64,000 nucleotides of DNA from Candidatus Bathyarchaeota archaeon (GTDB taxonomy: Archaea > Thermoproteota > Bathyarchaeia > Bathyarchaeales > Bathycorpusculaceae). The position numbers and the translations under genes were made by a program. Position 1 is the stretch's first letter, and every line of letters starts with the position of its first letter. The stretch lies in contig CAVYHV010000014.1 of NCBI GenBank assembly GCA_963768425.1, positions 288,001 through 352,000 on the forward strand, written 5' to 3'. Positions 13,864 through 31,813 of this stretch are shown here, one piece after another. The notes under the pieces were generated by a model. That model ran no database searches, was not told where the DNA came from, and saw only the letters and a program-made list of their open reading frames with translations.

Positions 13864-14133
13864 CTAACGCACAGATGCATTCGCTTTCAACACGAAAACC
13901 CGCAGATCAATTCTTGACGGGCAAACATAAGTGCAGTTTCCACATCCCTCACAGAGGTCAACTCGAAGCTTCCGCAGCGTTTCCTTTTTGTTTTTCTCGA
14001 AAGCCTCTTTGATTAAGACTGGGCTCAGGTTGTGCGGGCAGGAACGCATACAGACGCCACATCGGATGCAAGCCACTGTTTTCTCCTGCTTACGAGGATT
14101 CTCAAGAGTTTGAGAGGCACCCATACGTTTCAC
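13864..14133 (-). CDS. 2x[4Fe-4S] ferredoxin resembling the RnfC C-terminal dicluster domain
   Basis: CIRCGVCMRSCP and CEGCGNCTYVCPSRIDL. Confidence 0.8.
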   Translation of the reverse strand: MKRMGASQTLENPRKQEKTVACIRCGVCMRSCPHNLSPVLIKEAFEKNKKETLRKLRVDLCEGCGNCTYVCPSRIDLRVFVLKANASVR

Positions 14134-14332
14134 TTTGAAAGCTGAAACATGAACGATAATTATATAGGTTTTTGCTACAGCAGAATTTTGTCACCTTTCA
14201 AACACTGAAGCAGGAAAGAGGCTTTTTGTTTCCCAAAACTATACAGACATTAAAACACCATGTGGTCGACTCTTTAGAAATGCTTATTACTTATCGCCGT
14301 TGATGTCTATTTGTAGATTCTGAAGGTTTTTT

Positions 14333-15363
14333 ATGTCTTCTGAGAAAAATCGGGCCTTATATTCTAGCGATTTCCAGTCCTACTGCAGCAACGCAAAAAA
14401 ACTTGTTGATTTTGAACTCCAAACGCTTCTGCCGGCCATCGCCAAGTTTAAGCTGCGAAAACAAATAGAGTACGCCCTACTGACCAAAGGGAAACGGCTT
14501 CGCCCCACTTTAGTTCTGTTGAGCGGGGAAAGCGCAGGCGGCAACCGAACGCAGCTTCGCAGGTTGGCGTTGGCTTTTGAGCTATTGCATTTAGCAACGC
14601 TTGTCCATGATGACATTTTGGATGAGGACACGTTCAGGCGAAATGCCCTGTCGGTTTATGCAAAATGGAGCGTTAAAGATGCTATTCTTGTGGGTGACGT
14701 TTTGGCTTCGTTTTCGCTGTCTTTGTGCAAGGGATACAGAAGGGAAATCCTCAACGTGATTATCGACACTTGCATGCAGCTTTCAGATGGCGAATACAGC
14801 GACGTAGAATTAGCCGGTGAAGAATTAAACGAAAAAGAGTACTTTGGAAAGATACAAAAGAAATGCGCAGCACTTTTCAGGGCAGCCTGCGAATGCGGAG
14901 CTCTTGCAGCCGACGGCTCATCCAGCGTGACTAGGCGTTGAGGCTTTTCGGCGAGAACTACGGTGTTGCTTACCAGATAAAAGACGACATACTGGACGCG
15001 CAGGAATGGGGGAACGATCTGCAACCCGACGTCAACAAGTTCCGAGCCACACTTCCAATAATACACGCGTACGAAACGGCTGGCAAAGAGAAGCAGGTGC
15101 GTTTCAGAAGGCTTCTTTCCGCAAAAACAACCCGGAACCTTAGTATTTTCCTAAGAGAAGTGCAGCCGTATTTTGAGAAAGGCTCCTTAAATTACTGCAC
15201 AAACCGATTAAACATGTACGTTGACAGGGCAGTTGCAAGTTTAGCGCCGTTGAAAGAAACCCGATTTAAAAGTTACCTCGTTGAGATGGCTGAGTTATTG
15301 AAGATGGAAGAACAAGAAGTCGGCATCCAAAAGATCGCTGCAGAAACCAGAAAGTTAACGTAG
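14333..15363 (+). CDS. trans-polyprenyl diphosphate synthase, probably medium/long chain (frameshift near 14935)
   Basis: GKRLRP, FARM LATLVHDDILD..RR, SARM YQIKDDILD in second frame. Confidence 0.88.
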
Positions 15364-15406
15364 AGACACTTTCTTTTTTTGTCATTTATACTGAGGATGA
15401 AAAATT

Positions 15407-16899
15407 TTGACTGGGAAGCTGCAGTTAGCTGGTGAAATTTATTCGGATGAGGCATCTTTGAAAGCCTACTCCACGGATATGAGCCACTACTCAGTTAAGC
15501 CTCAGATGGTTGCTGTCCCAGCAAACGAGCAAGACATCGCTAGGATAATCGCTTACGCAAAGCAAGAATCGATCCCTATCACCCCGCGTGGAGCAGGCTC
15601 TAACCAATCAGGCTCCGCCGTCGGACCAGGCATTATTGTTCTCTTCTCCAAAATGAACGCTATTGTTAAAAGGAATGGGCGTAGGGTTCGGGTTCAATCT
15701 GGCGTAATCCACAAGTTCTTGACCAGCAACTTGCCGCGGACGGGCTAAGGATCCCTTATGACCCCACGTCCCGTGGGTTTTGCACCATAGGCGGAAACGT
15801 CGCAACCAAGGCAAGCGGGGTCAGAAGCCTCAAATATGGGACGGTTGACTCGGCGCTAAGAAGCCTACGTTTCTTTGACGTCGCCCACGGGTTAATTGAT
15901 ACTCAAGGTCGCCTGCCCGAAACCGTTGAAGAAGCCATCGCTGACCTTAAGAAACGTCTTATTAGCGATAAAGAAGCGATGAGCGTCCTAAACGCTCGAG
16001 GCAACCTCAAATCCAGCAGCGGCTACAACCTGCGAAGCCTCATCCAATACCAAGAGCCAAACGAAATCGTGACCCATCTAATGGCTGGCTCGGTTGGTAC
16101 GCTGGGGGTTTTCAGCGAAGTAGAGTTGGAAGCAGTTCCCTTTCCCGAAAGCCGCATACTCTACATCGCCTTTTTCCGTTCCTTGACGGAAGCAGCCGAA
16201 GATGTGAAAAAGCTCATGGCAATCAAACCCTCAGCTGTCGAGCTCATGGATTCTTACGGAGTTGATTTGCTAAGAAAAACCAATGAAGTCAACGTTCCCC
16301 TTGATTGCAAGGCTGTTCTGTTTGTGGAATTAGATTCTGACTTAGAACAAACGAGTATTGCTATGATGAGTTATTTGAAGGAGAAACCACTGGAATTCTC
16401 GGTTGAAACTGATCCGAAAAAGCAAGCTGCGCTTTGGATGGTGAGGGAGTCGATGCTTCTTTGGATTATGAACTCGCTGGAAACGGCGCAAAAAAGGTTT
16501 CCGCCCTTTGCAGACGATATAGCTATACCAGTGCAGCAACTACCGAACTTCATAGCCGCCGTTCAACAGATATTGGATAGTTTTGGGACTATTGCAGTGA
16601 TTTACGGGCACGCAGGCGAAGGAAACCTACACATAAGGCCAATGATTAGCATTGAGAATTGGGAAGAAAACCTAAAAAAATTATCCAGCCTCATCTTCGA
16701 CGCAGCCCTAAAGGCAGGTGGAACCATAACGGCTGAGCATGGACTAGGAAGAAACAGGTCATTGTATCTTCGCAATGAGTGGGGAGACAAAATCTACCGC
16801 TATTTCTCAGAAGTAAAGAGGATTTTTGACCCCACAGGACTCTTAAATCCGGACGTGGTTTTCACGTCGGATGATCTAACAAAAAACCTCAAGTTGTAG
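15407..16899 (+). CDS. FAD-linked oxidase, GlcD/D-lactate dehydrogenase family (frameshifted near 15720-15780)
   Basis: PRGAGSNQSG, TIGGNVAT.ASG, GHAGEGNLHI, AEHGLGR, DPTGLLNP. Confidence 0.85.
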
Positions 16900-17087: not shown

Positions 17088-18311
17088 ATGGCAACCCAAG
17101 CACAAAAAACCGCGCCATCAACCACTAAAGACACTGGACTACGCGGAGTCCTCATCGCCGACACGGCAATCTCGCTTATCGACGGAGTAAAAGGCGAGCT
17201 TTCCTATCGAGGATTCGACATACATGATTTAGCTGCTTACTCAACCAGTGAAGAAGTCGCTTATCTGCTATTAAACGGCAACTTGCCAACAACGGCGCAG
17301 ATTGAAGAATTCTCAAAGACCCTTGTAACGGAAAGAAAACTGCCACCAAGCTTAGTTGAAGTTCTCAAAAAACTTCCCAGCTCAGCAGCACCTATGGATG
17401 TTCTGCAGGGAACAGTGGCTTTGCTTGCTGATTTTGACCCCGAAAAGCATGATGACTCAAAAGAGGCTAACCTGAAGCGTGCATCTCGACTAATAGCTGT
17501 GTTACCCACAGTGGTTGCGTTTTGGGATAGAATCAGAAAAAACCAGCCCCCTATCGAGCCGAACTCGAAGCTGAATAGGGCTGCGAATTTCCTGTACATG
17601 CTCTCAGGCAATGAGCCAGAGGAGGAGACAGCTAAGGATTTTGACACCTCGTTGGTCTTGCATGCTGAACACTCGTTTAATGCCTCTACTTTTGCCGCAA
17701 GGGTTGTGGCTTCAACGCGGGCTCACATGTACGCCGCAGTCAGCGCTGCCGTCGGGTCGCTTTCAGGCGAATTGCACGGCGGAGCGAACATGCAGGTTAT
17801 GAGGAACCTCGTTGAAATCGACGATCCAGCCAAAGTTGAAGCTTGGGTTAAAGCGAAATTTGACAACCATGAACGCATCATGGGCATGGGTCACGCAGTG
17901 TACAAAGCCTTAGACCCCAGAGCTGATTTGCTTCGGCACATCTCCGAGAAACTTGCGCGGCGAACAGGCGAACCGAAATGGTACCTAATGACTAAAGAAA
18001 TCGAATTTAACACTCAACGCGAGTACCGAGTGCGCAAAGGCGGCGAAATCTACCCTAACGTAGACCTATACAGCGCCTCCGTCTACCATATGCTCGGCAT
18101 CCCTGATGACTTGTTCACACCCATCTTTGCTGTAGCAAGAGTCCCAGGATGGGCAGCACACATTATCGAAGAAAAGTTTCCTGCGCCGCCGATTAAGCCT
18201 GAACTTTACCGCCCCAGCGCACAATACGAAGGCAACTACTGTGGAGCTGTAGGCTGCAAATACGAACCCATGGCTAAACGGGCAACAGAAAGCCAACAAC
18301 AAACAAAGTGA
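17088..18311 (+). CDS. gltA: citrate synthase / 2-methylcitrate synthase
   Basis: HAEHSFNASTF, LHGGAN, MGMGHAVYK, PNVD. Confidence 0.9.
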   Translation: MATQAQKTAPSTTKDTGLRGVLIADTAISLIDGVKGELSYRGFDIHDLAAYSTSEEVAYLLLNGNLPTTAQIEEFSKTLVTERKLPPSLVEVLKKLPSSAAPMDVLQGTVALLADFDPEKHDDSKEANLKRASRLIAVLPTVVAFWDRIRKNQPPIEPNSKLNRAANFLYMLSGNEPEEETAKDFDTSLVLHAEHSFNASTFAARVVASTRAHMYAAVSAAVGSLSGELHGGANMQVMRNLVEIDDPAKVEAWVKAKFDNHERIMGMGHAVYKALDPRADLLRHISEKLARRTGEPKWYLMTKEIEFNTQREYRVRKGGEIYPNVDLYSASVYHMLGIPDDLFTPIFAVARVPGWAAHIIEEKFPAPPIKPELYRPSAQYEGNYCGAVGCKYEPMAKRATESQQQTK

Positions 18312-18341
18312 CCAAAAAGTTTTCGCGCAGAGAGAAAGATG

Positions 18342-19076
18342 CTATCCAGAGGCACTGTTTTTTGGCCGCAGCTCATCCATGATTCTTTTTCTAATTTCCA
18401 TGATATGCTTTGTAACCTGAATAGATTTAGGGCAAACCACCGTGCATCGATAGTAAGATTTGCAGCTCCATGCACCATGCGGCTTATCCATAATTTGCAG
18501 GCGTTCAAGCATGTCTTTGATGCGGCTGTCAAAAATGTATCTGTGCGCCCTAACGATGGCGGCTGGCCCTACATAGCTGGGATCTTCTTTCTGGCTGACA
18601 GGGCAAGCAGAGACGCAACAGGCGCACATAATGCATTTGATGTCATCGTCAAACTGCGATCGCTCCTCAACCGTCTGCCGATGCTCTTTGCCTTCTTCTG
18701 CTGCCGTCAAGCTTATCCCCTGGGACGAGTGAACAGATTTTTCCTTCGCAAAAAACTCGTCCAAGTCCACCACTAAATCTTTCACGACGGGAAACACGCT
18801 AAGAGGCTCAATCAGGATTTCTTTGTCAACTGGATAGTCTTTCACAAGTTTTTGGCATGCCAAAGCTGAAACCCCATTGATCGTCATGCCGTCGGAACCG
18901 CAGATACCATGGGCGCAACTCATTCGGTAAGCTAAGCTTCCATCTTGTTCCCATCGAACCTTATTGAGGCAGTCAAGAAGCCTATCTGTTGATTTGGCGT
19001 CAACAACGAATAAGTCGTAACGTGGTTCTTTGTCAGCTTTAGGGTCGAACCGGAAGATTTTCAACTTGACGTTCAT
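18342..19076 (-). CDS. sdhB: succinate dehydrogenase/fumarate reductase Fe-S subunit
   Basis: SCAHGICGSD..LAC; CIMCACCVSACP; CKSYYRCTVVCPK. Confidence 0.93.
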   Translation of the reverse strand: MNVKLKIFRFDPKADKEPRYDLFVVDAKSTDRLLDCLNKVRWEQDGSLAYRMSCAHGICGSDGMTINGVSALACQKLVKDYPVDKEILIEPLSVFPVVKDLVVDLDEFFAKEKSVHSSQGISLTAAEEGKEHRQTVEERSQFDDDIKCIMCACCVSACPVSQKEDPSYVGPAAIVRAHRYIFDSRIKDMLERLQIMDKPHGAWSCKSYYRCTVVCPKSIQVTKHIMEIRKRIMDELRPKNSASG

Positions 19077-19077
19077 G

Positions 19078-20803
19078 CTAGTACTTCCTCGCTTTAGGTT
19101 CAAAACGAGTAATACTCACGGGTTTATACCGAGCTTCGAGTCCGTTGGCAGTGTGGAATATGAGTGAGTGCTTAAGCCAGACTTCGTCGTTGCGGCTGGG
19201 AAAGTCGTTGCGGAAGTGAGCTCCTCGGCTTTCTTCACGTTTCAGTGCAGAATAAACGATTACTTTTGAAAGCTTCAGCATATTATCGAGCTCAAGCGCT
19301 CCCTCAAGCTCATAGTTGAAAGATTTGCCACGGTAGCTGAGACCAAGATTAGCCGCTCTACCTTGAAGTCCCTGGATCCTGCTTAGAGCCTGCTCTAACC
19401 CCACTTTGTCGCGGAAAACGCTGCATAAGTGAGTCATCACTTTCTCCATTTCCACGCGTATCTCGGCAACACGTTCCTTTCCAGTAGAAGCCAGAAGGGA
19501 ATCTATTCTTGAAAAAACCATTTGCTCAGCATCTGCGTCAAGAGGGGTTTGAGAGGTTTCGCCGACATAATTCGCAATGTGCAGTCCGGCCCGTTTTCCG
19601 AAAACAACCAGATCAACCAACGAATTTGTTCCAAGCCTGTTGGCTCCATGAACACTTACGCATGCACATTCACCCGCCGCATACAACCCAGGAATGACAG
19701 CGGATTTTTCATCTGCAAGGACGCGTGCTTGAGCGTCAGTGGGGATGCCGCCCATCATGTAGTGACAGGTTGGCGCAACAGGAATCGGCGATTCGCTAGC
19801 GTCTATACCTAAGTAGGTCTTGACGAACGATGTGACCTCCGAGAGTTTCTGCTGCAACTGATCTTTGCCAAGATGCGTTAAATCCAAGTAAACGTAGTCT
19901 GAGCCTTCGATACCTCTGCCTTCGGCGACTTCGGTTAAAATGGCTCTGGAAATGATGTCTCTTGGCGCCAGGTCCTTCAGCGACGGCGCGTAACGTTCCA
20001 TAAACCGCTCGCCCTTGCCGTTACGCAACACGCCGCCTTCAGCTCGAGCCGCTTCGCTGACCAAGATGCCTAAACCGTGAATCCCAGTTGGATGGAATTG
20101 AACGAACTCCATATCTTCAAGCGGAACCCCCGCTTCAAAAGCCAAAGCGAAGCCATCTCCCGTAGCGGCAAAAGACATAGAAGTCGTTTGAAAGATTCTG
20201 CCGCAGCCCCCCGTAGCTAACAAAACTGCTTTCGCATGAAAAACCACCGATTCGCCCGTCGCCAACTCGTATCCCGAAACGCCGCAGCATCGTCCTTAAG
20301 GCATCAGAAGCGAGGTAACAAAGACTTCGTTGAATATTTTTACGCCTCGAACCATGCAGTGGTCGTAGAGCGTGTCCATAATAACGCGCCCCGTCCTGTC
20401 AGATGCATAGCAAGCCCTCTTCACAGGCGCCTCCCCGAAGTTTCTGGTGTGCCCTCCAAATCGTCGCTGCTCAATTGTTCCTTTCTCGTTGCGGCTGAAG
20501 GGTACGCCAAGATGCTCCAGCTCAATCACTCTCTCAGGGGCTTCCCGAGCCAGAATTTCAGCCATATCCTGGTCTGCCAAGTAGTCGCTTCCTTTCACTG
20601 TGTCAAACATGTGCCATTCCCAGTGGTCTTCCTCCTCATTTCCAAGAGCCGCCGCAATACCGCCTTGAGCCGCTCCACTGTGACTTCGAGAAGCATACAC
20701 CTTGCTGATGACAGCTACGTTGCAGGTTTCTGACGCCGTCAAGGGCAGCAGTCATGCCAGCAATGCCTGCGCCAACGATCACCACATCAAATTCATGAAT
20801 CAT
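19078..20803 (-). CDS. sdhA: succinate dehydrogenase/fumarate reductase flavoprotein (two frameshifts)
   Basis: DVVIVGAGIAG, RSHSGAAQGG (FAD-His), QFHPTG, HYMMGG, HGANRLGTNSL, ESRGAHFR across ORFs 20636-20824, 20296-20742, 19078-20265. Confidence 0.92.
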
Positions 20804-21923
20804 GCCTTTTTCCGTCCTGTTCACTGAAGAATAGGATATCCCGGTTGACTTCTGAGAGCGAGTCGCAACTTGTCATAACCATAGCCATCCGCAAATCACT
20901 CTTCACATAGTTGATGTACATTGCCACAGCTTCGGGTCCGCCTGCAAGGCTCATCCACGCAAGTGGTCTTCCAATCAACGCCACATCCGCTCCCAACGCC
21001 AGAAGCTTAAGAACATCGAAACCTGTTCTTACCGCGCCATCAGCCATTATAGTGATTTTGCCTTTGAACTTGTCAACGATTTCCGGCAGGACCTCCGCTA
21101 CGCCTTTTCCGCAATCCATTACTCTGCCGCCGTGGTTACTGACATCAAGCGCTTTTGCTCCGGAATCAGCCACTTTGCCCGCGTCCTCCACATTCATGAT
21201 GCCCTTGAAGATGACGGGTTTTTCTGTGGCGTCGACTAGTTCTTTGAGATCACTTTCGCTTTTACGGTAAAGTGGCTTGCCTCTCAGCGCCCAGTTAGTT
21301 GAGCCGTAGCCATCTAAGTCAACGCCGATAGCTAATACGTCGGCATCTTCACAACGCTTAAACAGATTTAGAAGACGCTCTTGCGACTGCGGTTTGAAAA
21401 CAGGGATGCCCCAGCCGCCGATCCCGCCAATAACATCTATCCCAGGATGGTCAGGTGCATCAACGGTGTTTCCGCTTAACCCGATGGTGCCTGCCTGCTT
21501 AGCGCCTTCCACCATGCCACGCTGGAATTCCTCTTCACTCAACGCGTTATTCATGCTTATCAGTGTCCCGCTTATGCTTGTCGCCAACACGGGTAAAGAA
21601 ATGCGGTTACCCAGAAAAGTTGTTTCTAATTTTGGTTCGCGATGCTCTTTGATGACTTGCATCTTGAGCGTGTATCGTGAAAGAGCTTGAAAGTTTGCGC
21701 TCCAAGTTTTGCCCTGACCTGCGCCTCCGAAACCGATGGGTTTCCCGTACTTCATTCCTTGGCAAAGCCTATCAGGGTCTCCATCGCACACTTTGTTTAC
21801 AGCGCAGACCTTCGAGAGTTGTTTTCTGGCGATGTCCCGATAGTAGGATATGTCTTTTAGAGGTTTTTCATTTGTCGATGGATAGTGTTCTTTCGTATTT
21901 TTCCCTTGCAGATATGAATTCAT
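20793..21923 (-). CDS. FMN-dependent alpha-hydroxy acid dehydrogenase/oxidase
   Basis: KGIM, DVSNHGGR, DGAVRTGFDVLK.LALGA, IGRP; N-terminal Cys cluster. Confidence 0.9.
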   Translation of the reverse strand: MNSYLQGKNTKEHYPSTNEKPLKDISYYRDIARKQLSKVCAVNKVCDGDPDRLCQGMKYGKPIGFGGAGQGKTWSANFQALSRYTLKMQVIKEHREPKLETTFLGNRISLPVLATSISGTLISMNNALSEEEFQRGMVEGAKQAGTIGLSGNTVDAPDHPGIDVIGGIGGWGIPVFKPQSQERLLNLFKRCEDADVLAIGVDLDGYGSTNWALRGKPLYRKSESDLKELVDATEKPVIFKGIMNVEDAGKVADSGAKALDVSNHGGRVMDCGKGVAEVLPEIVDKFKGKITIMADGAVRTGFDVLKLLALGADVALIGRPLAWMSLAGGPEAVAMYINYVKSDLRMAMVMTSCDSLSEVNRDILFFSEQDGKRHDS

Positions 21924-22090
21924 TGTTCATTTATTTCTTTCAGGTTGCCTTTCCAGTGCCCGCAGACCGGGCATCGCCAAGTTTGAGGAATTCCCTCCAA
22001 TTTCATGCTTGGCGGCAGCTCTGCTACTAAGTCGCCTTTTTCATCATCAAACGTAAAGCTCCTGCAGAACTCACACATAAACTTCAACAA
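21920..22090 (-). CDS. rubredoxin
   Basis: CEFC...FDDEKGD...PQTWRCPVCG; start uncertain. Confidence 0.85.
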   Translation of the reverse strand: MLKFMCEFCRSFTFDDEKGDLVAELPPSMKLEGIPQTWRCPVCGHWKGNLKEINEQ

Positions 22091-22266
22091 TAACACCGAG
22101 CAAAACTGATTTTGGGTCACTGTGCCCTGATTAATTCCAAGTTTATCGTTTCTAAAAAACTTTTGCAACTCAGCGGTAAGAGCACTATCCTTTGGAAACC
22201 CTTAAATCGTTGCCTCAAACCCATTGTTAATGATGATGTTTTTCATCTTTTTCTTAAAAAGAAGGC

Positions 22267-23124
22267 TTGTTTATGAATGGAAAGGATTTTGCTTTTGATT
22301 TTGTAAAAATTGATATGCCACCTGAGAGACCGAGAAACTCTGGTATAATAGAGTTTAGAGGACCGTACTATAACTCGGTCAGTTACGGCTTCTTGAAAGA
22401 TTTGCTTGATGATTGGTCGTTTTACGTTGACGGGTTCAAGTTTGCCGGCGGCTCGATGAGGCTACTTCCTAGGGCAAGAGTACGCCAAATTATTGGGGCA
22501 TGCCATGAGCATGGGCTTTATGTTTCCACCGGGGGATTTGTTGAGCGGGTAATTGTTCAAGGAAGCGAAACAGTTGACAACTATCTTGATGAATGTAGGC
22601 AGTTGGGGTTTGACGTTGTCGAAGTTTCAAGCGGTCTTGCACCGATTTCTCTGGAAGACAAACTGAAGATTATGAGCCAGGTTCAAAAGTTAGGCATGAA
22701 GCCTAAACCCGAGGTTACAATGATGATTGGGGCAGGTGCGGGCACACACATCGCTGGGTACGAGGCAGGCATGAAGCTGCGAAGCTTTGACGAGTTCTCA
22801 GAAGAAGTATCGACCCACCTCAAAGCAGGCGCAGAAATGATAATGATAGAATCCGAAGGTTTAACCGAAGATTTGCCGCCTGAACAATGGAAAACTGATG
22901 TCATCAAGAAAATCGTAGACAAGTTCGGAACCAAAAATCTGATGTTTGAAGCTGCGGATCCTCCGGTGTTCAAGTGGTACCTCAAAAACTTCGGCAAAGA
23001 CGTGAATTTGTTTATCGATTACTCGCAGATAGTCGAGTTCACCGCTTGGAAAACTAAGCTTTGGGGAGACCCTGAAATCTGGTTGGGAAAACCCGTTAAA
23101 TATAATAAGAACAAAAATCGATAA
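22267..23124 (+). CDS. phosphosulfolactate synthase (ComA) family, HSA32-like subgroup
   Basis: VDGFKFAGGS, HEHGLYVSTGG, LGFDVVEVSSG, MIESEG, MFEA, VNLF. Confidence 0.85.
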   Translation: MFMNGKDFAFDFVKIDMPPERPRNSGIIEFRGPYYNSVSYGFLKDLLDDWSFYVDGFKFAGGSMRLLPRARVRQIIGACHEHGLYVSTGGFVERVIVQGSETVDNYLDECRQLGFDVVEVSSGLAPISLEDKLKIMSQVQKLGMKPKPEVTMMIGAGAGTHIAGYEAGMKLRSFDEFSEEVSTHLKAGAEMIMIESEGLTEDLPPEQWKTDVIKKIVDKFGTKNLMFEAADPPVFKWYLKNFGKDVNLFIDYSQIVEFTAWKTKLWGDPEIWLGKPVKYNKNKNR

Positions 23125-23195: not shown

Positions 23196-24560
23196 CTAAG
23201 TGAAGACCAAATTCTCCGTCAACTTTCGAGCATCAATATTCTCCAGATGTGCCACCGCGTCCATAATTTCCTTTTTTCTCGCCTCTTCAACGAACATAGA
23301 GACAAGGGATGAAAACTTCTCAGTTGCATCGGCCCAGCTCATCGGCCGCGTTAAGAACCCTTCATAATCGTCAACCGCTTTGGTTAGGGTTTTCCCGTTT
23401 TTTAGGCGGATTGTTATTTCACAGGGCATGGCGTTTGGAAATCTCTTGCTTAACTCAGATGAAGGGACAATCTGGACCTTCTTTAAGAGAGCCTGCACAT
23501 CGCTCCTCATTACTCTTTGGGGCAAATATTGCTCCGGGGTAACCTTGCCATCGATTAAGGCAGCTGAGAGAATATATGGGAGACTATGATCTGCTTCCTC
23601 TTTCGTTCGGACCAGCTTTTTTTCGCCCTCTTCGCCGCCCCCAATAATCTTGTAAGCAACATCGAAAATGCGCACGTCAATTGAATCTGCATCTTGAACT
23701 CTGAGACCCTGCTTTCTTAACGATAGAATGCAATCTATAGCGGATTGGGAATGTATTTCAGCATTGTATTTCTTCAGAATGGTGCGGTTCACTGCCTCAA
23801 GGTTCTCTTTTTTCCAGTCAATCTCGAAGCGCCCGGCAATAGAATCCATGAAGCCTTTGTTGCCTTCAAAAACTTCCAGCGGACCAGTGATTCCCTCGCT
23901 GGCCAGAAAAGTGGCGTGTAAAGCACAGGAAGCCATGAATGGGTATGCGATGCCTTTCCAGTTGGAGAGTTTCCCGGTTCTTGTGACACGAAGTGCGTTC
24001 AAGGATGTACCGCTGATGGCGATGGAGTTAGCGGTTTTGGCGGTGTCAAGCCTCAACGCTTTGGATACGCCCGCAGCTACAGCGTAGGCTCCCTGAGTCA
24101 CATGGTCAAAGCCTTTGTCTCTTACAGGTGCAACCTCGCTTAAACGGCATTGAACCTGATAAGCCACAGCCAAAGCAACCAAAAATTCTTTCCCCGATGC
24201 ACCAGCATACTCTGAAGCAGCCAGAACTGAAGCGAGATTGTCGCTTGGGTGACATGTTTCTCCTTTTGAGAGGAAACTGTCGTTAAAATCTAGGTACCTA
24301 ACTAGCGTGCTATTTATCAGGGTAGCGCGATCCGGAGCGGTTTTGGCTCCACCTATCAAAGTGCACAGAGGCAGTCCCCCGAACTCGCTTTCGACCTTAC
24401 GTATGGACTTTACAGGTTGGCTTTGCAATGCTCCTATGGCGCAACCAAACGAATCAAGAACCCTGATTTTTAGCTGCTCAACGGCTTTGCTTGACAGGTC
24501 CTCAAACCTGGACGCATGCACAAATTCAGCAAGTCCTTCAACACATGTCAATTGTAACAA
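23196..24560 (-). CDS. prpD: MmgE/PrpD family (2-methylcitrate dehydratase-like)
   Basis: RYLDFNDSF...CHPSDN, LSNWKG, EADHSLPY. Confidence 0.88.
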   Translation of the reverse strand: MLQLTCVEGLAEFVHASRFEDLSSKAVEQLKIRVLDSFGCAIGALQSQPVKSIRKVESEFGGLPLCTLIGGAKTAPDRATLINSTLVRYLDFNDSFLSKGETCHPSDNLASVLAASEYAGASGKEFLVALAVAYQVQCRLSEVAPVRDKGFDHVTQGAYAVAAGVSKALRLDTAKTANSIAISGTSLNALRVTRTGKLSNWKGIAYPFMASCALHATFLASEGITGPLEVFEGNKGFMDSIAGRFEIDWKKENLEAVNRTILKKYNAEIHSQSAIDCILSLRKQGLRVQDADSIDVRIFDVAYKIIGGGEEGEKKLVRTKEEADHSLPYILSAALIDGKVTPEQYLPQRVMRSDVQALLKKVQIVPSSELSKRFPNAMPCEITIRLKNGKTLTKAVDDYEGFLTRPMSWADATEKFSSLVSMFVEEARKKEIMDAVAHLENIDARKLTENLVFT

Positions 24561-24674: not shown

Positions 24675-25838
24675 GTGATTATTTTGAATTTAACAGAGTA
24701 CGAAGCAAAACAAGTTTTCTTCAATTATGGTATTCCGATTCCGAAAGGAACTTTAATTTCTGAATCCAAGCAAACCAAAGATAACATGAACAGTTTAAAG
24801 CCGCCATACATGGTTAAAGCGCAAGTTCCAGCAGGTGGAAGGGGAAAAGCTGGAGGAATTATATCTGTTTCATCAGTACACGAGGCAGAACAAGCCGCTG
24901 CCAAACTTCTTGGAACACAAATCAAGAACCTTCTTGTAAAGCAAGTCCTAATCGAGGAAAAGCTCCCGGTAAAAAAGGAGTTGTATCTGGGAATCACAGT
25001 TGACCGCTTTAACCGTTGTTATGTTGCCTTGGCTTCTGCGGTGGGTGGCGTGGAAATCGAGGAAGTCGCCGAGAAAACTCCCGAAGCAATCTTCAGAGAC
25101 AGGGTGGATTCTCAGCTGGGCATGCCTTCTTTTCAGGCATTAGCGATCGCGAAACAATTAGGTTATAGCGGCAGCCAGCTCTTAGAATTAGTAACTGTTA
25201 TTCAGAAACTTTTTCGAGCGTGTGTTGAAAGCGACGCTGAAACGACGGAGATTAATCCTTTGGTGGAAACGGTAGCGGGAGGTTTTGTGGCTGCTGACGC
25301 TCGCATGGTTATTGATGATAATGCCCTGTTTAGGCATCCAGAGTATGAGGCAAAGCAAGTTCAATCGCTCTCGCCTGACGATACTTTAGCTTTGAAACAC
25401 AGTTTAGCTTACGTTAAACTTGACGGCGACATAGGCGTTGTCGGCAACGGCGCTGGGTTGGTTATGGCAACGCTTGATTTGTTGATTTTTTTCGGTGGCA
25501 AACCAGCAAATTTCTTAGATGTAGGCGGCGGAGCAAGCACGGAAGCAATCACTGCGGCTTTAGTAATAGTTCTTGGTGACTCAGCTACAAAAGCCGTTTT
25601 AGTCAACGTTCTGGGTGGAATAACGCGTTGTGACGATGTAGCAAGAGGCATAGTTGAAGCTATCAAAGAAACTAATTCAAAGAAGCCAGTGGTTGTTAGG
25701 CTTGTTGGCACGAACCAGCTGGAAGGACAAAAAATTCTCATCGACACTGGAATATCCGTTTTGGGCAGCATGGAGGAAGCAGCAAAGCTGGCAGTTGCGT
25801 ATGCGGCGGAGGGAAGCGGTAATGGGGATTTTGGTTGA
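24675..25838 (+). CDS. sucC: succinyl-CoA ligase (ADP-forming) beta subunit
   Basis: VKAQVPAGGRGKAGG, DDNALFRH, GNGAGLVMATLD, PANFLDVGGGA. Confidence 0.96.
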   Translation: MIILNLTEYEAKQVFFNYGIPIPKGTLISESKQTKDNMNSLKPPYMVKAQVPAGGRGKAGGIISVSSVHEAEQAAAKLLGTQIKNLLVKQVLIEEKLPVKKELYLGITVDRFNRCYVALASAVGGVEIEEVAEKTPEAIFRDRVDSQLGMPSFQALAIAKQLGYSGSQLLELVTVIQKLFRACVESDAETTEINPLVETVAGGFVAADARMVIDDNALFRHPEYEAKQVQSLSPDDTLALKHSLAYVKLDGDIGVVGNGAGLVMATLDLLIFFGGKPANFLDVGGGASTEAITAALVIVLGDSATKAVLVNVLGGITRCDDVARGIVEAIKETNSKKPVVVRLVGTNQLEGQKILIDTGISVLGSMEEAAKLAVAYAAEGSGNGDFG

Positions 25839-26718
25839 TTCTGGAACGAGAGCGATTGTTCAAGGCGCAACGGGCAAACAGGGCAGCTACCAAACTAGGC
25901 TAATGCTTGACTATGGCACGAAAATTGTGGCAGGAGTTGTGCCTGGCAAAGGCGGAACATTGGTAAACGGATTGCCCGTTTTTGATACAGTAAGTGAAAC
26001 AGTCGATGCCTATTCTCCCAATGCCTCAATAATTTTTGTGCCAGCGCCATTTGCGAAAGACGCTGTTTTGGAAGCAGCCGCCAGCAAAATCGAAACAGTC
26101 GTAGTAATCACTGAACATCTGCCAATAAGAGACACTATTAGCAGCTTAGGATACGCGGCTCATTCGAATGTCACGGTTGTTGGTCCGAACACGCCGGGAA
26201 TCATTACGCCCGGTGAATGCAAACTTGGAATAATGCCAGCAGACGTTTTTGCACCGGGAAGTATTGGTCTTGTTTCGAGAAGCGGAACTTTAACCTACGA
26301 AATAGCAGCCAGTCTCACAGCCAATGGTTTGGGTCAGTCGACCTGCCTTGGCGTCGGTGGCGACCCCGTCGTGGGCTTAAACTTCATTGACGCATTAGAA
26401 CTATTCAAAGCTGACCCGAAAACGAAAGCGGTGGTTTTAATCGGTGAAATCGGCGGGAACATGGAAGAGCTGACAGCAGAATATATCGCCCAGACGCGTT
26501 ACCCTAAGCCGGTTGTGGCTTACGTGGCCGGTCGCTTTGCGCCTGAAGGCAAGAGGATGGGTCACGCGGGAGCTATAATTACTGGAAAACAGGGAACGGC
26601 TCAAAGCAAGATTGACGCCTTTTTAAGTTCGGGTGTTAAGGTTGCTGAGAAGCCAAGCGACGTTGCAGCCATTTTGGCAACAGAAGTTGAGACACAAAAA
26701 CAAGTTGCCGATAGCTGA
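25822..26718 (+). CDS. sucD: succinyl-CoA ligase alpha subunit
   Basis: VQGATGKQGS, GPNTPG, SRSGTLTYE, MGHAGA (phospho-His). Confidence 0.96.
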   Translation: MGILVDSGTRAIVQGATGKQGSYQTRLMLDYGTKIVAGVVPGKGGTLVNGLPVFDTVSETVDAYSPNASIIFVPAPFAKDAVLEAAASKIETVVVITEHLPIRDTISSLGYAAHSNVTVVGPNTPGIITPGECKLGIMPADVFAPGSIGLVSRSGTLTYEIAASLTANGLGQSTCLGVGGDPVVGLNFIDALELFKADPKTKAVVLIGEIGGNMEELTAEYIAQTRYPKPVVAYVAGRFAPEGKRMGHAGAIITGKQGTAQSKIDAFLSSGVKVAEKPSDVAAILATEVETQKQVADS

Positions 26719-26829
26719 ACTGTCGAGTACAAGTGCTCGGTCGGGTTCCAAAAGATTTATCTTTAAACCTAAACAGAACTATTATATGATTGCCAAGTTG
26801 TTGGCAGTTTTTTGCAGCGAGCTGTCTTT

Positions 26830-27786
26830 ATGAGCCAGAATAACCCGAAAAAATTTAGTGCTGAAGACCTTAAGCAATTCGATGGGTCAAATGGAAAACC
26901 ATTGTATGTTGTTTTCAAGGGAAAAGTTTACGACCTTACAACCAGCCCGCTTTGGCTTCAGGGTACGCACATGGGCATGCATAACAAAAATGACGACTTA
27001 ACTGAAGCAATAAAAACTGCCCCACATACTGAGGATAACGTTTTCAGATTCCCGTATGTTGGAGAAATAGCCGAGCCCGTTTTGAAGGCGCCACCGCCTC
27101 TTCCACTTGAAGAGCAAAAGCCTGTCCAACTACAGGTGCAGTCCCCACCGAACGCTGCGGGAGTCATGGAGAGGCGTACTTTCCTGAAACTTGCAGCTGC
27201 GACTGGGGGAGCAATCACTATAGCCGCGTTGCTTTCAACTTTGAAGGCAGGAACATTTGTGCCCCCTCCAACCACAACGACAGCGTGGCCAATAGTCACT
27301 GTTACAAACCTAAGCAAACTGACAAACCTCGTGCCGGTTGTGTTTTATTACCCATTAACCAGCACTCCGAACTACCTTGTAAAACTGGGCGTGGCCGCCA
27401 CAGGCGGCATCGGACCAGAAAATGACATCGTGGCTTTCAGCGCGATTTGTCAACATTTAGGATGCGAATATGGCTTTGTTGCTCCAGGTGGCTCACCTCC
27501 CTGCAACTCAGGGTACAAGGCAGTTATGCCCATGGGCTACTGCTGTTGTCACGGTTCACAGTACGATTTCGTTCACGGCGCGAAAGTAATTGGCGGTCCA
27601 GCTCCACGACCTGTTCCTATGGTTCAACTGCAACTGGATACAACTACAGGAGACATAAGCGCGGTTGGGATGCAGCCGCCGACGATTTTTGGGCACGGTC
27701 CGCCGGGAACTACGAATCCAGCGTCGGTGATGCAATATGATTTACAAGGTGGAGATTTAGTGACGCAATCCACAGTTTTGGGATGA
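26830..27786 (+). CDS. cytochrome b5-like heme domain fused to Tat-anchored Rieske protein of a cytochrome bc-type complex
   Basis: N: LKQFDGSNGKPLYVVFKGKVYDLT..H..H..APH; internal MERRTFLK + TM; CQHLGC and CCCHGSQYD. Confidence 0.88.
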   Translation: MSQNNPKKFSAEDLKQFDGSNGKPLYVVFKGKVYDLTTSPLWLQGTHMGMHNKNDDLTEAIKTAPHTEDNVFRFPYVGEIAEPVLKAPPPLPLEEQKPVQLQVQSPPNAAGVMERRTFLKLAAATGGAITIAALLSTLKAGTFVPPPTTTTAWPIVTVTNLSKLTNLVPVVFYYPLTSTPNYLVKLGVAATGGIGPENDIVAFSAICQHLGCEYGFVAPGGSPPCNSGYKAVMPMGYCCCHGSQYDFVHGAKVIGGPAPRPVPMVQLQLDTTTGDISAVGMQPPTIFGHGPPGTTNPASVMQYDLQGGDLVTQSTVLG

Positions 27787-29325
27787 ATGAGCATGACTGA
27801 ACAAACTGAGCCCGCCAAAAAGACCGCTTACGACAAGCTTGTCGACTGGTTTGACGTGAAGTTCGGCTTCGCCAAAGCGCCGCTAAAGCCGATTCCAGAC
27901 TTCACTATGAACCCGATTTACTGGCTCGGCTTGCTATTAGCTGTGACTTTCGGCTTACAGGCGCTAACAGGAATCTTCATGCTTCTCTACTATGTGCCTA
28001 CACCTGCCCAAGCCTACTCGTCGACGGCATCTATAATCAGTTCCGTGCCTCTTGGTTCGCTTGTTGAAACCTTTCACCTGTACACAGCCTACGCCATGAT
28101 TATCTTGACATTTCTCCACCTCACCCGCAACTTTTTCGGCAGCGCTCACAAAGGGAACAGGGATTTAATGTGGCTTGTCGGAGTCATTTTGGCTGTAGTA
28201 GTCGTTAGCTTCGGGGTGACAGGGTATCTTTTACCGTGGACAGTGATTTCAAAGTCGGCAAGCGACGTCGCCATTGGATTTCTCAACTTCTTCCCCGTTG
28301 GCTTAGCAAACCTTGGAAAATTCGTTGCGGTAGGCTCAGGCAGCGACGCATCAGAGTTGACAACGTTCCTTCACATTCACACCGTTTTCCTTCCGCTAGC
28401 GCTCATTGGACTTTTGGGGTTGAAGATTTACATGTATGAAGTGCATGGCCCAATCTACGTGTCAGCTTACGGAAAACCGGGAAAAGGCAAGTACTACAAC
28501 TGGTTCCCGAAGATCTTCCTCTACTTCGTCATGCTCGCAAGCGCCTACGTAGCGATACTGCTGGCTGCATCTTCCCTTTTCCCTCTGGTTTTGCCACCAG
28601 CATATTCCGCAGCAACCGCCGGCGCATATGTCGTCCAGCCTGACTGGTATCTGCTATGGGTTTACCAACTCTTGAAAATCCAGATTTTTGAAGGACCAGC
28701 CGCGGCTTACGTGATAGCCGCTCTAATTGCTTTTGGAGTACTTCTTTTCCTCATGCCTTTCTACGACAGAAGCAAACGCAGAAACATAAGTCAAAGACCA
28801 GTCTATACCACTATCGGCGCCGTGCTGATAATTGAGCTCATAACTCTAACCATATGGGGCTATCTGACTCCTGGGCGAATAATTCCGGATTACCAAGCCC
28901 TGCTTGTTTTAGGCGGAGTAGCTGTGGCAACTATCGCTGCGCTTTGGGCGGTTTATCGACTACGACGAAAAACAAACACAGCAACTGTCCTGCCGACACA
29001 ATCTACAGCAAACCCACTCTTGACCAGCCCGCTCATGACGACACCATCCATCGCAAACCATTCCCCAAAGAGGGCTGCCCAGTCGAAAAAACAACTTGTA
29101 AAGCGTGCAGGCCAAAACTTGTTTAATTCGTTCACCGCTGTTTTCGCCGTTTTCCTGGCTGTTGCATCAGTTTCACTGGCGTCAGCCGTAAACATGTTAC
29201 CTAACGTTTTACCAAATGCGCCCTTCTTCGTGTTAGCTTTGTCTGCTTTTGTCGTTTCGGCGTTTTTCATGAGTCGGATGCTACGAAAGTTTGTGTTAGC
29301 GTATAACGGAGCAGTGACTAAATGA
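27787..29325 (+). CDS. cytochrome b of a bc-type complex (fused b6 + subunit IV type, extra C-terminal TMs)
   Basis: LTGIFMLLYYVP, FHLYTAYAMIILTFLH, TGYLLPW, Qo motif PDWY, MPFYDRS. Confidence 0.92.
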   Translation: MSMTEQTEPAKKTAYDKLVDWFDVKFGFAKAPLKPIPDFTMNPIYWLGLLLAVTFGLQALTGIFMLLYYVPTPAQAYSSTASIISSVPLGSLVETFHLYTAYAMIILTFLHLTRNFFGSAHKGNRDLMWLVGVILAVVVVSFGVTGYLLPWTVISKSASDVAIGFLNFFPVGLANLGKFVAVGSGSDASELTTFLHIHTVFLPLALIGLLGLKIYMYEVHGPIYVSAYGKPGKGKYYNWFPKIFLYFVMLASAYVAILLAASSLFPLVLPPAYSAATAGAYVVQPDWYLLWVYQLLKIQIFEGPAAAYVIAALIAFGVLLFLMPFYDRSKRRNISQRPVYTTIGAVLIIELITLTIWGYLTPGRIIPDYQALLVLGGVAVATIAALWAVYRLRRKTNTATVLPTQSTANPLLTSPLMTTPSIANHSPKRAAQSKKQLVKRAGQNLFNSFTAVFAVFLAVASVSLASAVNMLPNVLPNAPFFVLALSAFVVSAFFMSRMLRKFVLAYNGAVTK

Positions 29326-29978
29326 TGAAGGACAACTTTGACTCTTTGCGCGTCACCGCCTATTTCCTATTGGCTTTCCTGGCAATTGTCGGAGTTGCAG
29401 TTTGGCTTCTAAACCTGATAACTCAATGGAGAGTCTTCGGTTTCTTGATGAGCGCAGAATTCACCGCATTCGCAATGCTCGTCTACCTTTTCTATATGGA
29501 AGACCCGGTTGCAGCCAAGAAAATATTAACCTCCGGGTTCGTTGCCCTAGGAATCCTAATTATTTTGGCAGGCGCCGTTTTAGCTGGTGCTGGGACACCG
29601 GTGACGCTGCCTAAGCCCAATGTTTCAGTCACTCTTTACGCTGGCGAGGTTTCCTCCAACTTGTTCGGATTCGGAAACAGCGCAACTTCCATAACTTCGC
29701 CTGGTCCAACCTTAACGTTCACGGTGGGCGACGTCGTAAACATGACTGTTTTCAACGCGGGAACAATGCCTCATAACTGGGCGCTAGTCGCCTCAAACGA
29801 TACTTCAGGCAAAGTTCTTTTCGGCGCACAAATCGACAGCGGCCAAGTTCCCATACCCGTCAACGAATCAGCATCGGTTGTTTTCAGAGTCACAAAAGCT
29901 GGGAATTACTACTACATTTGTCAGGTTGCGGGTCACGTACAGTTAGGTATGTGGGGCAGTGTGATAGCGAATCCGTGA
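29322..29978 (+). CDS. membrane-anchored type-1 blue copper protein (sulfocyanin/plastocyanin-like)
   Basis: Three N-terminal TMs; PHNW...YYYICQVAGHVQLGMWG gives H/C/H/M ligands. Confidence 0.88.
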   Translation: MMKDNFDSLRVTAYFLLAFLAIVGVAVWLLNLITQWRVFGFLMSAEFTAFAMLVYLFYMEDPVAAKKILTSGFVALGILIILAGAVLAGAGTPVTLPKPNVSVTLYAGEVSSNLFGFGNSATSITSPGPTLTFTVGDVVNMTVFNAGTMPHNWALVASNDTSGKVLFGAQIDSGQVPIPVNESASVVFRVTKAGNYYYICQVAGHVQLGMWGSVIANP

Positions 29979-30778
29979 CACAAAAAACCGCTGAAAAACT
30001 TTATGCTTCATGCCTCTTTTTCCTCGCAAGTTTACTTACGGGCCTGGTAAGCTTGGTCGCGTTAGGTTTTGTGTTTGCAAAGCAAAAAACCGAAAAGACA
30101 CATGAACCTAAAAAAGCAAAGGGTTTCCTTGCAGATGAGCATAAAGCACTGAATTTTTACAGAGTATTCTCTGTTGCCTACGACACTTTGAACCCGTACT
30201 TGTACACCGACGCCATGCGCAGCGAGATGGTAAATCAAATCCCAAACGGCGCAAACCTGCGGGTGCTCGACGTTGGATGCGGAACAGGCTACACCACATC
30301 AGGAGTTTTGAAGCGAGGAGACGTTTCAGAAATGGTTGCGTTGGACATGAACCCTGTGCAGCTCAAAAGAGCCGTCAAAAATCTGCGCCCGGAAAAGGTC
30401 AGGACTTTTATTTCAAGAGGCGACGCGGACAACTTGCCGTTTGCAGACTACTCTTTTGATGCGGTGATTTCTGTTGGAGCTATCGAGTATTTTCCTGATC
30501 CTGAGAAAACAATTATGGAGTTTGCAAGAGTCATAAAATCCAGCGGAACCGTTATTGTTGGCGGACCTGAATTGGGTTGGTTCAGCAAGCTGGCTTTAAA
30601 CAGGGTTTTTTACACGCCTTCCGTCCGAGAAATGGAGACTTTTTTTCGCAAAGCAGATCTTGTCAGGGTGAAATCCAGCCTTACAGGTATGAAAACTTTT
30701 TTCGGAACAAGCAAGTATGTTGTTTTTGCCGTTGGAAAGAAGCCGAGTCGACTGAGGATTAACGGGAAGACTAGGTAG
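29975..30778 (+). CDS. quinone-ring SAM methyltransferase, VTE3/MPBQ-MT-like (UbiE/MenG functional class)
   Basis: FYRVFSVAYD.LNP..YTDAMR, VLDVGCGTGYTT, GDADNLPF, SVGAIEYFPDP; adjacent to menA. Confidence 0.75.
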   Translation: MTQKTAEKLYASCLFFLASLLTGLVSLVALGFVFAKQKTEKTHEPKKAKGFLADEHKALNFYRVFSVAYDTLNPYLYTDAMRSEMVNQIPNGANLRVLDVGCGTGYTTSGVLKRGDVSEMVALDMNPVQLKRAVKNLRPEKVRTFISRGDADNLPFADYSFDAVISVGAIEYFPDPEKTIMEFARVIKSSGTVIVGGPELGWFSKLALNRVFYTPSVREMETFFRKADLVRVKSSLTGMKTFFGTSKYVVFAVGKKPSRLRINGKTR

Positions 30779-30781
30779 GGT

Positions 30782-31813
30782 TTAAGGTTTTTTTCTTGAA
30801 CTAAGCAAAGCCCAAGCCACAGGAGCATATGCAATGGCCAGCATTGCCAAGATGAAGACGAGTTGAAACGGGTTAGCTTTGTTCAATGTGCCCGCGACTG
30901 AGTAACCCGCGATTAAACCGAAGGCGGTCACGCTGTGAGCCACTATCATGTCAAGGTTGGCTGGTGCCATCAATCTCGGATTGTCATTATGTATCCTAAC
31001 GACCCTAATGGAGTGGATTACGAGAGGCAGGGAAAGCAAAGCGACTAGAGTGTAGAGCGGTATGAAGCCGAGCAAGGCAGAAGCGACGATTATCGAGTAT
31101 GTGCATATCCAGCTTGCTATGTACAGTTTGATCCCTGCCTGTTTGCCGTACCTTGCGACAAGCGTGAGTTTCCCAGCAGCTGTGTCCTCCTTTATGTCAG
31201 GAATCTCATTAATCACAATCATTGAAAACAGCATAACTCCTAAAGGCAACGTCGCCAAAAAAGCCTGCAACGTTATGGTTTGCGCTTGAACATAAAAGGC
31301 GCCTAAACCGATGATTGAGCCGAAATTCACCAGCATTGCAAGCTCGCCTAGCCCGTGGTGGCCAAAGCTTATCGGCGGAGCGGTATAGAAAACAGCACAA
31401 AACACACCGAATATTCCAAATGCCAAGATAGGCAAGCCTCGTGTTAAGGTGAGGTAGAAGCCGACAATCAAAGTGACGAGGTAGCACAGGGTGAATGCCT
31501 TAAACATGCTCCTAGGCGTCAAGAGTCCGCTGCTAAGAGTAGCGCTGCCGCCTGAATACGGGTTCTTCTCACCTGGTGCAAGCTTGTCCACACTGTGTTT
31601 ATAGTCGAAATAATCGTCGGTCATGTTTAAACCGATGTGATTAATAATTATGGCGACGAGAACAAGAAGGAAATACAGTGGAGTAAAACCGCTGTTAGTA
31701 GCCCAACTGACTAAGCCGCCCAAAACGGCGGGGAAGATACTGGGAGGCACAAAGTGGTAACGGAACGCTCGCCACCACACTTTCGCTTTACTGATTTGAT
31801 CTGTGCTTGACAT
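30782..31813 (-). CDS. menA: 1,4-dihydroxy-2-naphthoate polyprenyltransferase (UbiA superfamily)
   Basis: NMTDDYFDYKHSVD, YTAPP....HGLGE, NEIPDIKEDTAAGKLTL. Confidence 0.88.
   Translation of the reverse strand: MSSTDQISKAKVWWRAFRYHFVPPSIFPAVLGGLVSWATNSGFTPLYFLLVLVAIIINHIGLNMTDDYFDYKHSVDKLAPGEKNPYSGGSATLSSGLLTPRSMFKAFTLCYLVTLIVGFYLTLTRGLPILAFGIFGVFCAVFYTAPPISFGHHGLGELAMLVNFGSIIGLGAFYVQAQTITLQAFLATLPLGVMLFSMIVINEIPDIKEDTAAGKLTLVARYGKQAGIKLYIASWICTYSIIVASALLGFIPLYTLVALLSLPLVIHSIRVVRIHNDNPRLMAPANLDMIVAHSVTAFGLIAGYSVAGTLNKANPFQLVFILAMLAIAYAPVAWALLSSRKKP

Follow-up and report, generated by a model that had tools for sequence, protein, structure and literature searches.

In a 64,000-nucleotide stretch of a Bathyarchaeia genome (Candidatus Bathyarchaeota archaeon, contig CAVYHV010000014.1, positions 288,001 to 352,000; hereafter the window), yhbY and rps19e are separated by a block of energy-metabolism genes at 13864-31813. 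What is this block, how did it come to stand inside the conserved string rnp4-yhbY-rps19e-PDCD5-rpl39e-rpl31e, and what might it do for its host? The initial annotation of this DNA proposed an acquired, self-contained respiratory island. The gene order and all the functions that it named were confirmed (Table 1), and its respiratory reading is largely right; the acquired-island framing is wrong, and the locus is real, inherited and modular. In the reading that we favor, with a probability of about 0.6, the block would be an old, repeatedly lost accessory respiratory module at a variable yhbY-rps19e site, into which a set of tricarboxylic acid (TCA) cycle genes was nested later, and it would encode the SoxM-like quinol-oxidizing half of an oxygen-respiring chain. 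The direct basis for this reading is gene content, motifs, co-occurrence, gene order and tree congruence.

The chain that we envisage would run as follows. The prenyl synthase, MenA and methylase would finish menaquinone from a scavenged naphthoquinone head such as DHNA (1,4-dihydroxy-2-naphthoic acid), and the resulting quinol would be oxidized at the PDWY Qo site by cytochrome b together with a Rieske protein exported by the twin-arginine translocation (Tat) system. In place of cytochrome c, the blue-copper protein would deliver electrons to CuA in an A-family heme-copper oxygen reductase whose genes lie elsewhere. Because Wood-Ljungdahl machinery is kept beside the chain, the cell would be a facultative microaerobe.

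We compared the locus across a genus set of 120 genomes, this one and 119 others. Both rnp4 and rps19e are present in 108 genomes, and they lie in order on a single contig in 75 (counting the second rnp4 copy of G106 and a single copy each for G117 and G102, merging split matches in three genomes and dropping one reversed pair). As the gap between them is under 2 kb in 43 of the 75 (under 900 bases in 27, and 10-30 kb in 7), adjacency is the common state in the genus, and the block does interrupt a conserved string, as had been claimed. G106 has two rnp4-yhbY copies (L051, L102), one with the core module and one without, and is possibly a mixed bin.

What fills the interval differs among relatives. 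It may be empty, or hold a ferredoxin gene alone, a blue-copper gene alone or unrelated cargo; in G117 and G083 it holds sucCD with sdhAB. A core of prenyl synthase-Rieske-cytochrome b-copper-methylase-menA occupies it in G087, G090, G138 and G004, as it does, without the prenyl gene, in G016 and G131. The full nested form is found there in G085 and G130, without an intact flavin mononucleotide (FMN) enzyme in G086 and G128, and over two contigs in G084, the nearest relative. The citZ-sdhBA-fusion-comA-prpD set is placed elsewhere in G016, G131, G090 and G087, and the usual position of sdhAB, before fumC, is empty in the genome studied here. At least three sub-modules occur separately in relatives, contrary to the proposal of one acquired unit: the TCA genes form a sub-module of their own, and only in the closest relatives are they nested within the core. 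In G136 (L081-L082) and G065 (L103-L104) another energy block, of 24 kb, fills this slot; it comprises a prenyl synthase, Hdr genes, a true UbiE and a Nuo-type operon that includes a tandem-Cys NuoB.

Orthologs of the cytochrome b (72-95%) are present in 14 of the 119 other genomes, in 11 of them between both flanks, only beside yhbY in G106, elsewhere in G079 and unplaced in G082; the gene also occurs in two sister genera (64-73%) and two more distant Bathyarchaeia families (43-53%). A MenA ortholog accompanies it in 15 of 15 holders, this genome included. The combined Rieske and cytochrome b tree broadly follows the host tree across three genera; the host tree covers 36 of the 120 genomes, includes rml genes adjoining the block and is weak at its deep nodes. 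The core has been lost in the close relatives G117, G083 and G035, and a menA pseudogene stands beside yhbY in G108. The nearest kin of the Rieske protein and cytochrome b are archaeal.

A recent single horizontal acquisition, or a chimeric assembly, would be suggested by the GC content of the block (47.8% versus 44.3 +/- 1.9% for 18-kb windows, with 20 of 1,215 overlapping windows as high, block-covering ones included) and by two close homologs that bear bacterial names at NCBI. These two are probably mislabelled bins, however, and GC at third codon positions (GC3) is ordinary (0.49 versus 0.48 +/- 0.07). Nor does the block bear the marks of an integrative genomic island (an integrase, a tRNA target, direct repeats and foreign codon bias): no integrase was found among 26 open reading frames (ORFs) scanned and no convincing repeat at the boundaries, as the initial annotation had also noted, and there is no tRNA within the window. 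A 1,554-base contig of run X1 covers 13704-15258 and bridges the left junction, while a G084 contig runs through 27666-33081 at 93% identity and bridges the right one. Both junctions are thus backed by independent sequence, and the same site is found in many independent assemblies. With the host-congruent tree and the archaeal kin, these data already refute recent transfer and chimerism, which we consider scarcely credible. Of the two findings that the initial annotation had itself set against its proposal, chimerism is absent; the other, ancestry at this position, does hold, the core being old here within part of the genus. A long-standing presence and recurrent loss account for the data better than one recent transfer would; homologous replacement, recurring at the slot, is possible.

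Four genes of the block (prenyl synthase, glcD, sdhA and the rubredoxin fusion) carry one-base indels relative to G084, in which they are whole. At three of the four places the whole-gene form appears in contigs of two other DNA runs, and a script counted a similar rate of split genes across the assembly (10 of 52 outside the block and 3 of 15 inside, sdhA being missed by the script), for which reasons the four breaks are probably assembly errors. The two DNA runs compared, both carrying this stretch, are a soil metagenome and a peat metagenome. Contigs from two RNA libraries cover parts of citZ, sdh, the Rieske gene, cytochrome b and the copper gene; they were not used, as contigs cannot show transcription.

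The quinol-oxidizing chain that the initial annotation described is encoded in the block, with a menaquinone-type Qo motif. The Rieske domain has SoxF as its best solved match (1jm1, E 3e-19). Its 2Fe-2S boxes include the disulfide cysteines, and its cluster Cys and His residues are kept in 119-120 of 120 homologs, as are the RR and F of the twin-arginine motif in all 120. This motif is internal, after the cytochrome b5-like domain, and a scan for Tat motifs in N-termini alone, which missed this protein, is uninformative. TatC, of the Tat system recommended earlier for checking, is present in 5 of 5 genomes tested. The N-terminal domain matches the cytochrome b5M structures 6NZX and 6VZ6 at E ~1e-15 and keeps its three His in 116-119 of 120 homologs. 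The cluster of such b5-Rieske fusions is Bathyarchaeia-dominated; in G229 the b5-like domain is a separate adjoining gene, and the Rieske proteins of G439 and G257 have no b5 domain. Archaeal cytochrome b5M proteins bind heme (10.1101/2021.11.30.470528; unless stated otherwise, papers are cited here from the accessible portions of their text). They are stand-alone proteins, whereas here the b5-like domain is fused on the predicted cytoplasmic side of the Rieske anchor, and the word "Rieske" is absent from the text of the b5M family paper (10.1101/2021.11.17.468889). Stand-alone b5-like genes also occur elsewhere in this genome (C6:155206-155454 and C10:138627-138869), and a small soluble Rieske ferredoxin gene lies outside the block at 7125-7457 of the window.

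All the top Foldseek matches of the cytochrome b are complex III cytochromes b. Its PDWY motif, kept in 116 of 120 homologs, correlates with menaquinone in bacteria (PMC4122944). Of the four His that would ligate two hemes, three are present; the fourth is replaced in all 120 homologs by a lysine, Lys213, on a helix that is continuous from 187 to 220 in the predicted model. In a cytochrome b tree, three rows of which were ignored as wrong ORFs, this lysine is common to one defined clade, which spans three Bathyarchaeia families, a single Nitrososphaeria record and another genus of the Thermoproteota; His is retained in 24 Thermoproteota sequences that are more distant. Because the bH pocket is otherwise conserved (Gly48, His111, Trp129 and Gly132 invariant and Arg114 nearly so, by equivalences read from a b6 alignment), we infer that heme bH is bound but unusual. 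The accessible parts of PMC3509893 and PMC5600118 do not mention a lysine ligand. The third partner, the copper protein, matches both Pfam Copper-bind and SoxE above the gathering score, has type-1 ligands and three membrane segments, and is the sole match of its loop pattern in this assembly.

The system to which we liken this set is the Sulfolobus SoxM supercomplex (SoxF Rieske, SoxG cytochrome b, SoxE sulfocyanin and SoxH/M oxidase). The two share a Rieske domain nearest SoxF, a blue-copper carrier with a SoxE match, a PDWY Qo motif as in SoxG (PMC4122944) and, in relatives, a CuA-bearing A-family oxidase. Unlike in SoxM, the cytochrome b of the block belongs to a separate clade with Lys for the fourth His, the Rieske protein carries a b5-like domain, the quinone is of MenA type, the oxidase is usually in another operon and the host keeps the Wood-Ljungdahl pathway.

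As stated in the initial annotation, the terminal acceptor enzyme is not in the window, and the block holds no oxidase. Within the genus, 46 of 120 genomes have a heme-copper oxidase. Of the 14 other cytochrome b holders, 12 are among them; the remaining two are 71% and 68% complete. The oxidase operon of these holders contains coxBAC, cupredoxins and heme O synthase, and the oxidase is of the A family: the G085 protein, aligned to solved enzymes, has the metal His, the cross-link Tyr and Glu (GHPEVY) and the D-channel Asp, the rows of the motif count having been picked by the motif itself. A CuA motif is present in subunit II at 9 of 13 loci scanned. Since 12 of 14 relatives encode this A-family enzyme, oxygen is the likely acceptor. 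A Fisher test of cytochrome b against oxidase (12/3/34/71) was not relied on, because kin are not independent. Rieske/cytochrome b and cox genes share one cluster only in G079, G229, G439 and locus L121; in this genome the cluster lacks the oxidase genes that mark the SoxM type.

That the chain ends in something else than oxygen (humic quinones, metals or nitrogen oxides, for instance, accessed via a surface blue-copper protein) is very improbable. The soil and peat origin of the runs, the proposal of lignin or pyrroloquinoline quinone (PQQ) as quinone-like acceptors for Bathy-6 (PMC11697101) and the different quinone set (prenyl synthase, UbiE, Nuo-type and Hdr genes) at the slot in G065 and G136 would be consistent with it. 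However, the Rieske/blue-copper branch is high-potential, the partner enzyme that 12 of 14 relatives encode carries the cross-link Tyr found in oxygen reductases, and a CxxCH scan of 2,884 ORFs gave no multiheme c protein (reductases of nitrate, nitrite and N2O were not searched by family).

Several findings weigh against a SoxM-like oxygen chain, and the first concern its chemistry. Since the fourth heme His is replaced by Lys, it is uncertain whether a normal Q-cycle operates. A Rieske box with Ser and Tyr goes with a high potential, and the box found here suggests such a potential, an imperfect match to menaquinone. The oxidase of relatives is without the K-channel Lys (ISIPFEGVVL versus ISIPTGVKIF) and scores under the TIGR02891 cut-off. 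The Lys for His and the absent K-channel Lys could instead belong to an oxygen-linked but low-yield pathway, an unlikely alternative, in which quinol would be oxidized without a full Q-cycle, heme bH being absent or altered, mainly for oxygen scavenging, electron dumping and protection of Wood-Ljungdahl enzymes. In Pyrobaculum cytochrome b the same ligand position, the second bH His, is lost, which has been read as probable heme loss (PMC4122944), and FprA, rubrerythrin, SOD and KatG are all present here. Against it, the substitute in this clade is an invariant Lys, which looks like selection and not decay; the rest of the bH pocket is conserved; and A-type cox lies within 16 kb of an ATP synthase operon in 16 of 29 genomes.

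The next points concern the missing partners. No heme-copper oxidase, bd oxidase or ATP synthase was found in this assembly, which is 91% complete. None of the 21 ORFs on the G084 oxidase contig, housekeeping genes included, has a match here at 70% or above, which points to a gap; we put the chance that the missing oxidase is an assembly gap at about three in four. The missing ATP synthase, taken at first as proof of such a gap, is a weakened argument: 35 of 120 genomes, the single-contig G003 among them, gave no ATP synthase, and true loss is possible, although the enzyme was found in all 46 oxidase-bearing genomes. Moreover, 34 of those 46 are without such a cytochrome b, so the oxidase does not need the module. 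If oxidase and ATP synthase were truly lost, the block would be in early decay or would serve only fermentative TCA flux, through soluble fumarate reduction and ATP from succinyl-CoA. We regard this as rather improbable. In its favor, the place where G085, G128 and G130 carry cox lies in contiguous sequence here and is empty, breaks occur in four genes of the block, the core has gone from close relatives and menA is a pseudogene in G108, and ATP-citrate lyase genes are read elsewhere in the genome. Yet all of the Rieske, cytochrome b, blue-copper, methylase and menA genes are intact, the frequency of the breaks agrees with that of indels across the genome, contigs of other runs do not show them, and cox in G084 is at another place, whose housekeeping neighbors are missing here too.

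Other respiratory genes of the genus are worth recording. A second oxidase type has a cbb3-like subunit I (under NCBIfam cut-offs), a tri-heme CcoO/P-like subunit and CcmF; such scores were obtained for about 14 genomes, and three loci were read (L060:6610-12119, L062:7304-12808 and L064:7423-12582). Among archaea, oxidases of the C family are uncommon. A-type cox operons often adjoin a two-gene Tat-type flavoprotein dehydrogenase (L065:478-3123, L058, L063, L067, L070) that has no NCBIfam name at 1e-12 and also stands beside cox in genomes without Rieske/cytochrome b or MenA, which suggests quinone-free respiration through cupredoxins there. In the cupredoxin between coxC and ctaB, Ser and Asp replace the copper ligands Cys and His in G085 and G130 (L066:11912-12442, L067:7382-7909).

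The last points concern what the block would need from outside. Described earlier as self-contained, it lacks ring synthesis, SdhC/D and an oxidase. MenA scores barely above the TIGR00751 cut-off, with other MenA models under theirs, and the methylase reaches 57.9 bits against a TIGR01934 cut-off of 158, with UbiE-like Atlas neighbors; that it resembles plant MPBQ methyltransferase was also considered, but a structure search gave this no support. Because MenA is present in 15 of 15 holders, and MqnA/D and MenB above its cut-off in 0 of 120 genomes (other ring enzymes were not searched), the quinone head must be salvaged or made by another route; these absences make salvage a candidate. Streptococcus agalactiae and other lactic acid bacteria switch on respiration with external DHNA or quinone plus heme (PMC11220326). 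The likeness lies in MenA and prenyl synthase without ring synthesis and in heme synthesis that is not found in some genomes; unlike the NDH-2 and cytochrome bd of those bacteria, the chain here is of Rieske/cytochrome b, cupredoxin and heme-copper type, and in an archaeon. Heme is a further difficulty: HemA with an AhbCD-like pair occurs in 3 of 5 genomes and was not found in this one or in the 100%-complete G085.

No quinone-reducing entry point was found either. SdhC/D (PF01127) occur in 0 of 5 genomes, the sole CCG protein here, considered as an anchor for sdhAB, belongs to an hdr/mvh operon, and the operon that resembles complex I appears to be of the Hfo hydrogenase type. The block thus holds the flavoprotein and iron-sulfur subunits of a complex II without its membrane anchor. 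SdhA is found in 70 of 120 genomes, mostly as a more distant type in an anchorless sdhAB-fumC operon. For the proposed feeding of the chain by succinate and lactate or glycolate, the connecting step is lacking, and sdhAB without an anchor is frequent in relatives that have no such chain. A speculative and unlikely answer is that the cytochrome complex has a second, cytoplasmic-side electron port, with complex III doubling as the complex II anchor and the chain supplied by neighbors with DHNA (and, in some strains, with heme as well). The b5 heme, together with a heme bH of His/Lys or single-His ligation, would then let the soluble enzymes SdhAB, GlcD and the rubredoxin-FMN dehydrogenase reduce quinone at Qi. 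It would agree with the finding that family f35 has Sdh with anchors and a Rieske protein without the b5 domain, the reverse of this family, and that block-type SdhA travels with the module across genera. Against it, anchorless sdhAB also occurs in genus members without Rieske/cytochrome b (7 of 7 such loci read), and Lys213 is older than the b5-Rieske fusion. A complex prediction of SdhB, the b5-like domain and heme scored 0.00, evidence neither way.

The block contains 16 genes and not 17 as first counted, since the "rubredoxin" is the N-terminal domain of a fusion with an FMN-dependent 2-hydroxyacid dehydrogenase (457 aa in G084, 442 aa in G131). In G439 (L188:10377-11426) the FMN dehydrogenase carries a Rieske ferredoxin domain in place of this rubredoxin. 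The initial annotation had left a ComA-family gene unnamed. For a 2-methylcitrate cycle, PrpD scores under the TIGR02330 cut-off, and the PrpB lyase motif K[KR]CGH was not seen in this incomplete assembly. That the ComA-family protein might stand in for PrpB is speculation. Beyond the block, at 33000-57000 of the window, lies an ordinary cluster for dTDP-rhamnose and glycosylation, in which GC is low (35-38%) at 44-50 kb.

Table 1. Genes of the yhbY-rps19e interval and its flanks (window coordinates)
Feature	Position	Strand	Remarks
rps19e, left flank	13263..13775	-	
small dicluster ferredoxin, resembles RnfC C-terminal domain	13864..14133	-	alone in same interval in relatives
polyprenyl diphosphate synthase	14333..15363	+	split by one-base indel; 342 aa in G084
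GlcD-like FAD 2-hydroxyacid oxidoreductase, GlcF not adjoining	15407..16899	+	split; 497 aa in G084
citrate synthase II / 2-methylcitrate synthase	17088..18311	+	TIGR01800 above cut-off
SdhB/FrdB iron-sulfur subunit	18342..19103	-	
SdhA/FrdA flavoprotein, SdhC/D not adjoining	19078..20792 (5' end approximate)	-	split; whole in G084
rubredoxin / FMN-dependent 2-hydroxyacid dehydrogenase fusion	20793..22168	-	split; single ORF in relatives
ComA-family protein	22267..23124	+	under TIGR03849 cut-off; travels with prpD
MmgE/PrpD-family dehydratase	23196..24560	-	
SucC and SucD, ADP-forming succinyl-CoA ligase	24675..26718	+	both above cut-off
Rieske protein with N-terminal cytochrome b5-like domain	26830..27786	+	boxes CQHLGC, CCCHGSQY; internal twin-arginine motif RRTF
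long cytochrome b	27787..29325	+	His97, His111, His198, Lys213; Qo motif PDWY; about ten membrane helices in model
membrane-anchored blue-copper protein	29322..29978	+	three hydrophobic segments; His, Cys, His, Met ligand pattern
S-adenosylmethionine (SAM) methyltransferase, UbiE-like	29975..30778	+	under MenG cut-offs; quinone methylase by context only
MenA-type DHNA polyprenyltransferase	30782..31813	-	TIGR00751 107.9 bits, cut-off 102.15
yhbY and rnp4, right flank	32114..32735	-	

The host is a bathyarchaeon, as first suggested, from a group generally called anaerobic: of 22 ortholog records, 21 bear Bathyarchaeia or Bathyarchaeota in the title, and the remaining one Nitrososphaeria. The beta subunit of acetyl-CoA synthase (ACS) is present in 5 of 5 genomes tested, this one included, and an 11-gene complex I-like operon here resembles the Hfo hydrogenase of Bathy-6 (PMC7886697). 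Given these two features, the best-fitting genus is likely to be Bathycorpusculum/Bathy-6. By motif and sequence reading, the genome also encodes aconitase, isocitrate dehydrogenase, 2-oxoacid oxidoreductase, fumarase, SOD and catalase-peroxidases; at C13:17482-23619, genes read as aconitase, isocitrate dehydrogenase and ATP-citrate lyase subunits are clustered.

Oxygen respiration is already reported for other Bathyarchaeia. Houtuousia, soil Bathyarchaeia, have cytochrome c oxidase and a near-complete TCA cycle (PMC10321748, PMC12694404), and one FEN-987 peat metagenome-assembled genome has oxygen-respiration potential (PMC12296737). Houtuousia are reported to be without the Wood-Ljungdahl pathway and to be the sole oxidase holders, whereas here ACS (5 of 5) and oxidases (46 of 120) occur in another genus. 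Family f35, which holds related cytochromes b at 43-53% and includes G439 (Sdh with SdhC/D, Rieske protein without the b5 domain), is, at a guess, the Houtuousia lineage. For Bathy-6, microoxic life has been proposed for some members from SOD and pyruvate oxidase (PMC7110647), and a complete TCA cycle has been reported without a quinone pathway or terminal acceptor (PMC11697101); the genus is described as fermentative or acetogenic (PMC10684969, which calls it fermentative, and PMC11697101), and PMC8407382 gave no match for "cytochrome" or "oxidase". We found no description of the module or of the His-to-Lys change in the literature searched, which did not extend to supplements and subscription papers; these genes or residues may appear in the gene tables of PMC10321748 and PMC11697101 and in the alignment figure that PMC4122944 gives.

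With oxidases in 46 of 120 genomes and a quinol-oxidizing complex with MenA in 15, beside acetyl-CoA synthase, the idea of a microoxic Bathy-6 becomes a testable chain. It predicts culture conditions of low oxygen with DHNA and heme, and it bears on carbon turnover at redox boundaries in peat and soil. The Lys-for-His cytochrome b clade and the b5-Rieske fusion are, in turn, targets for studying variation of the Q-cycle.

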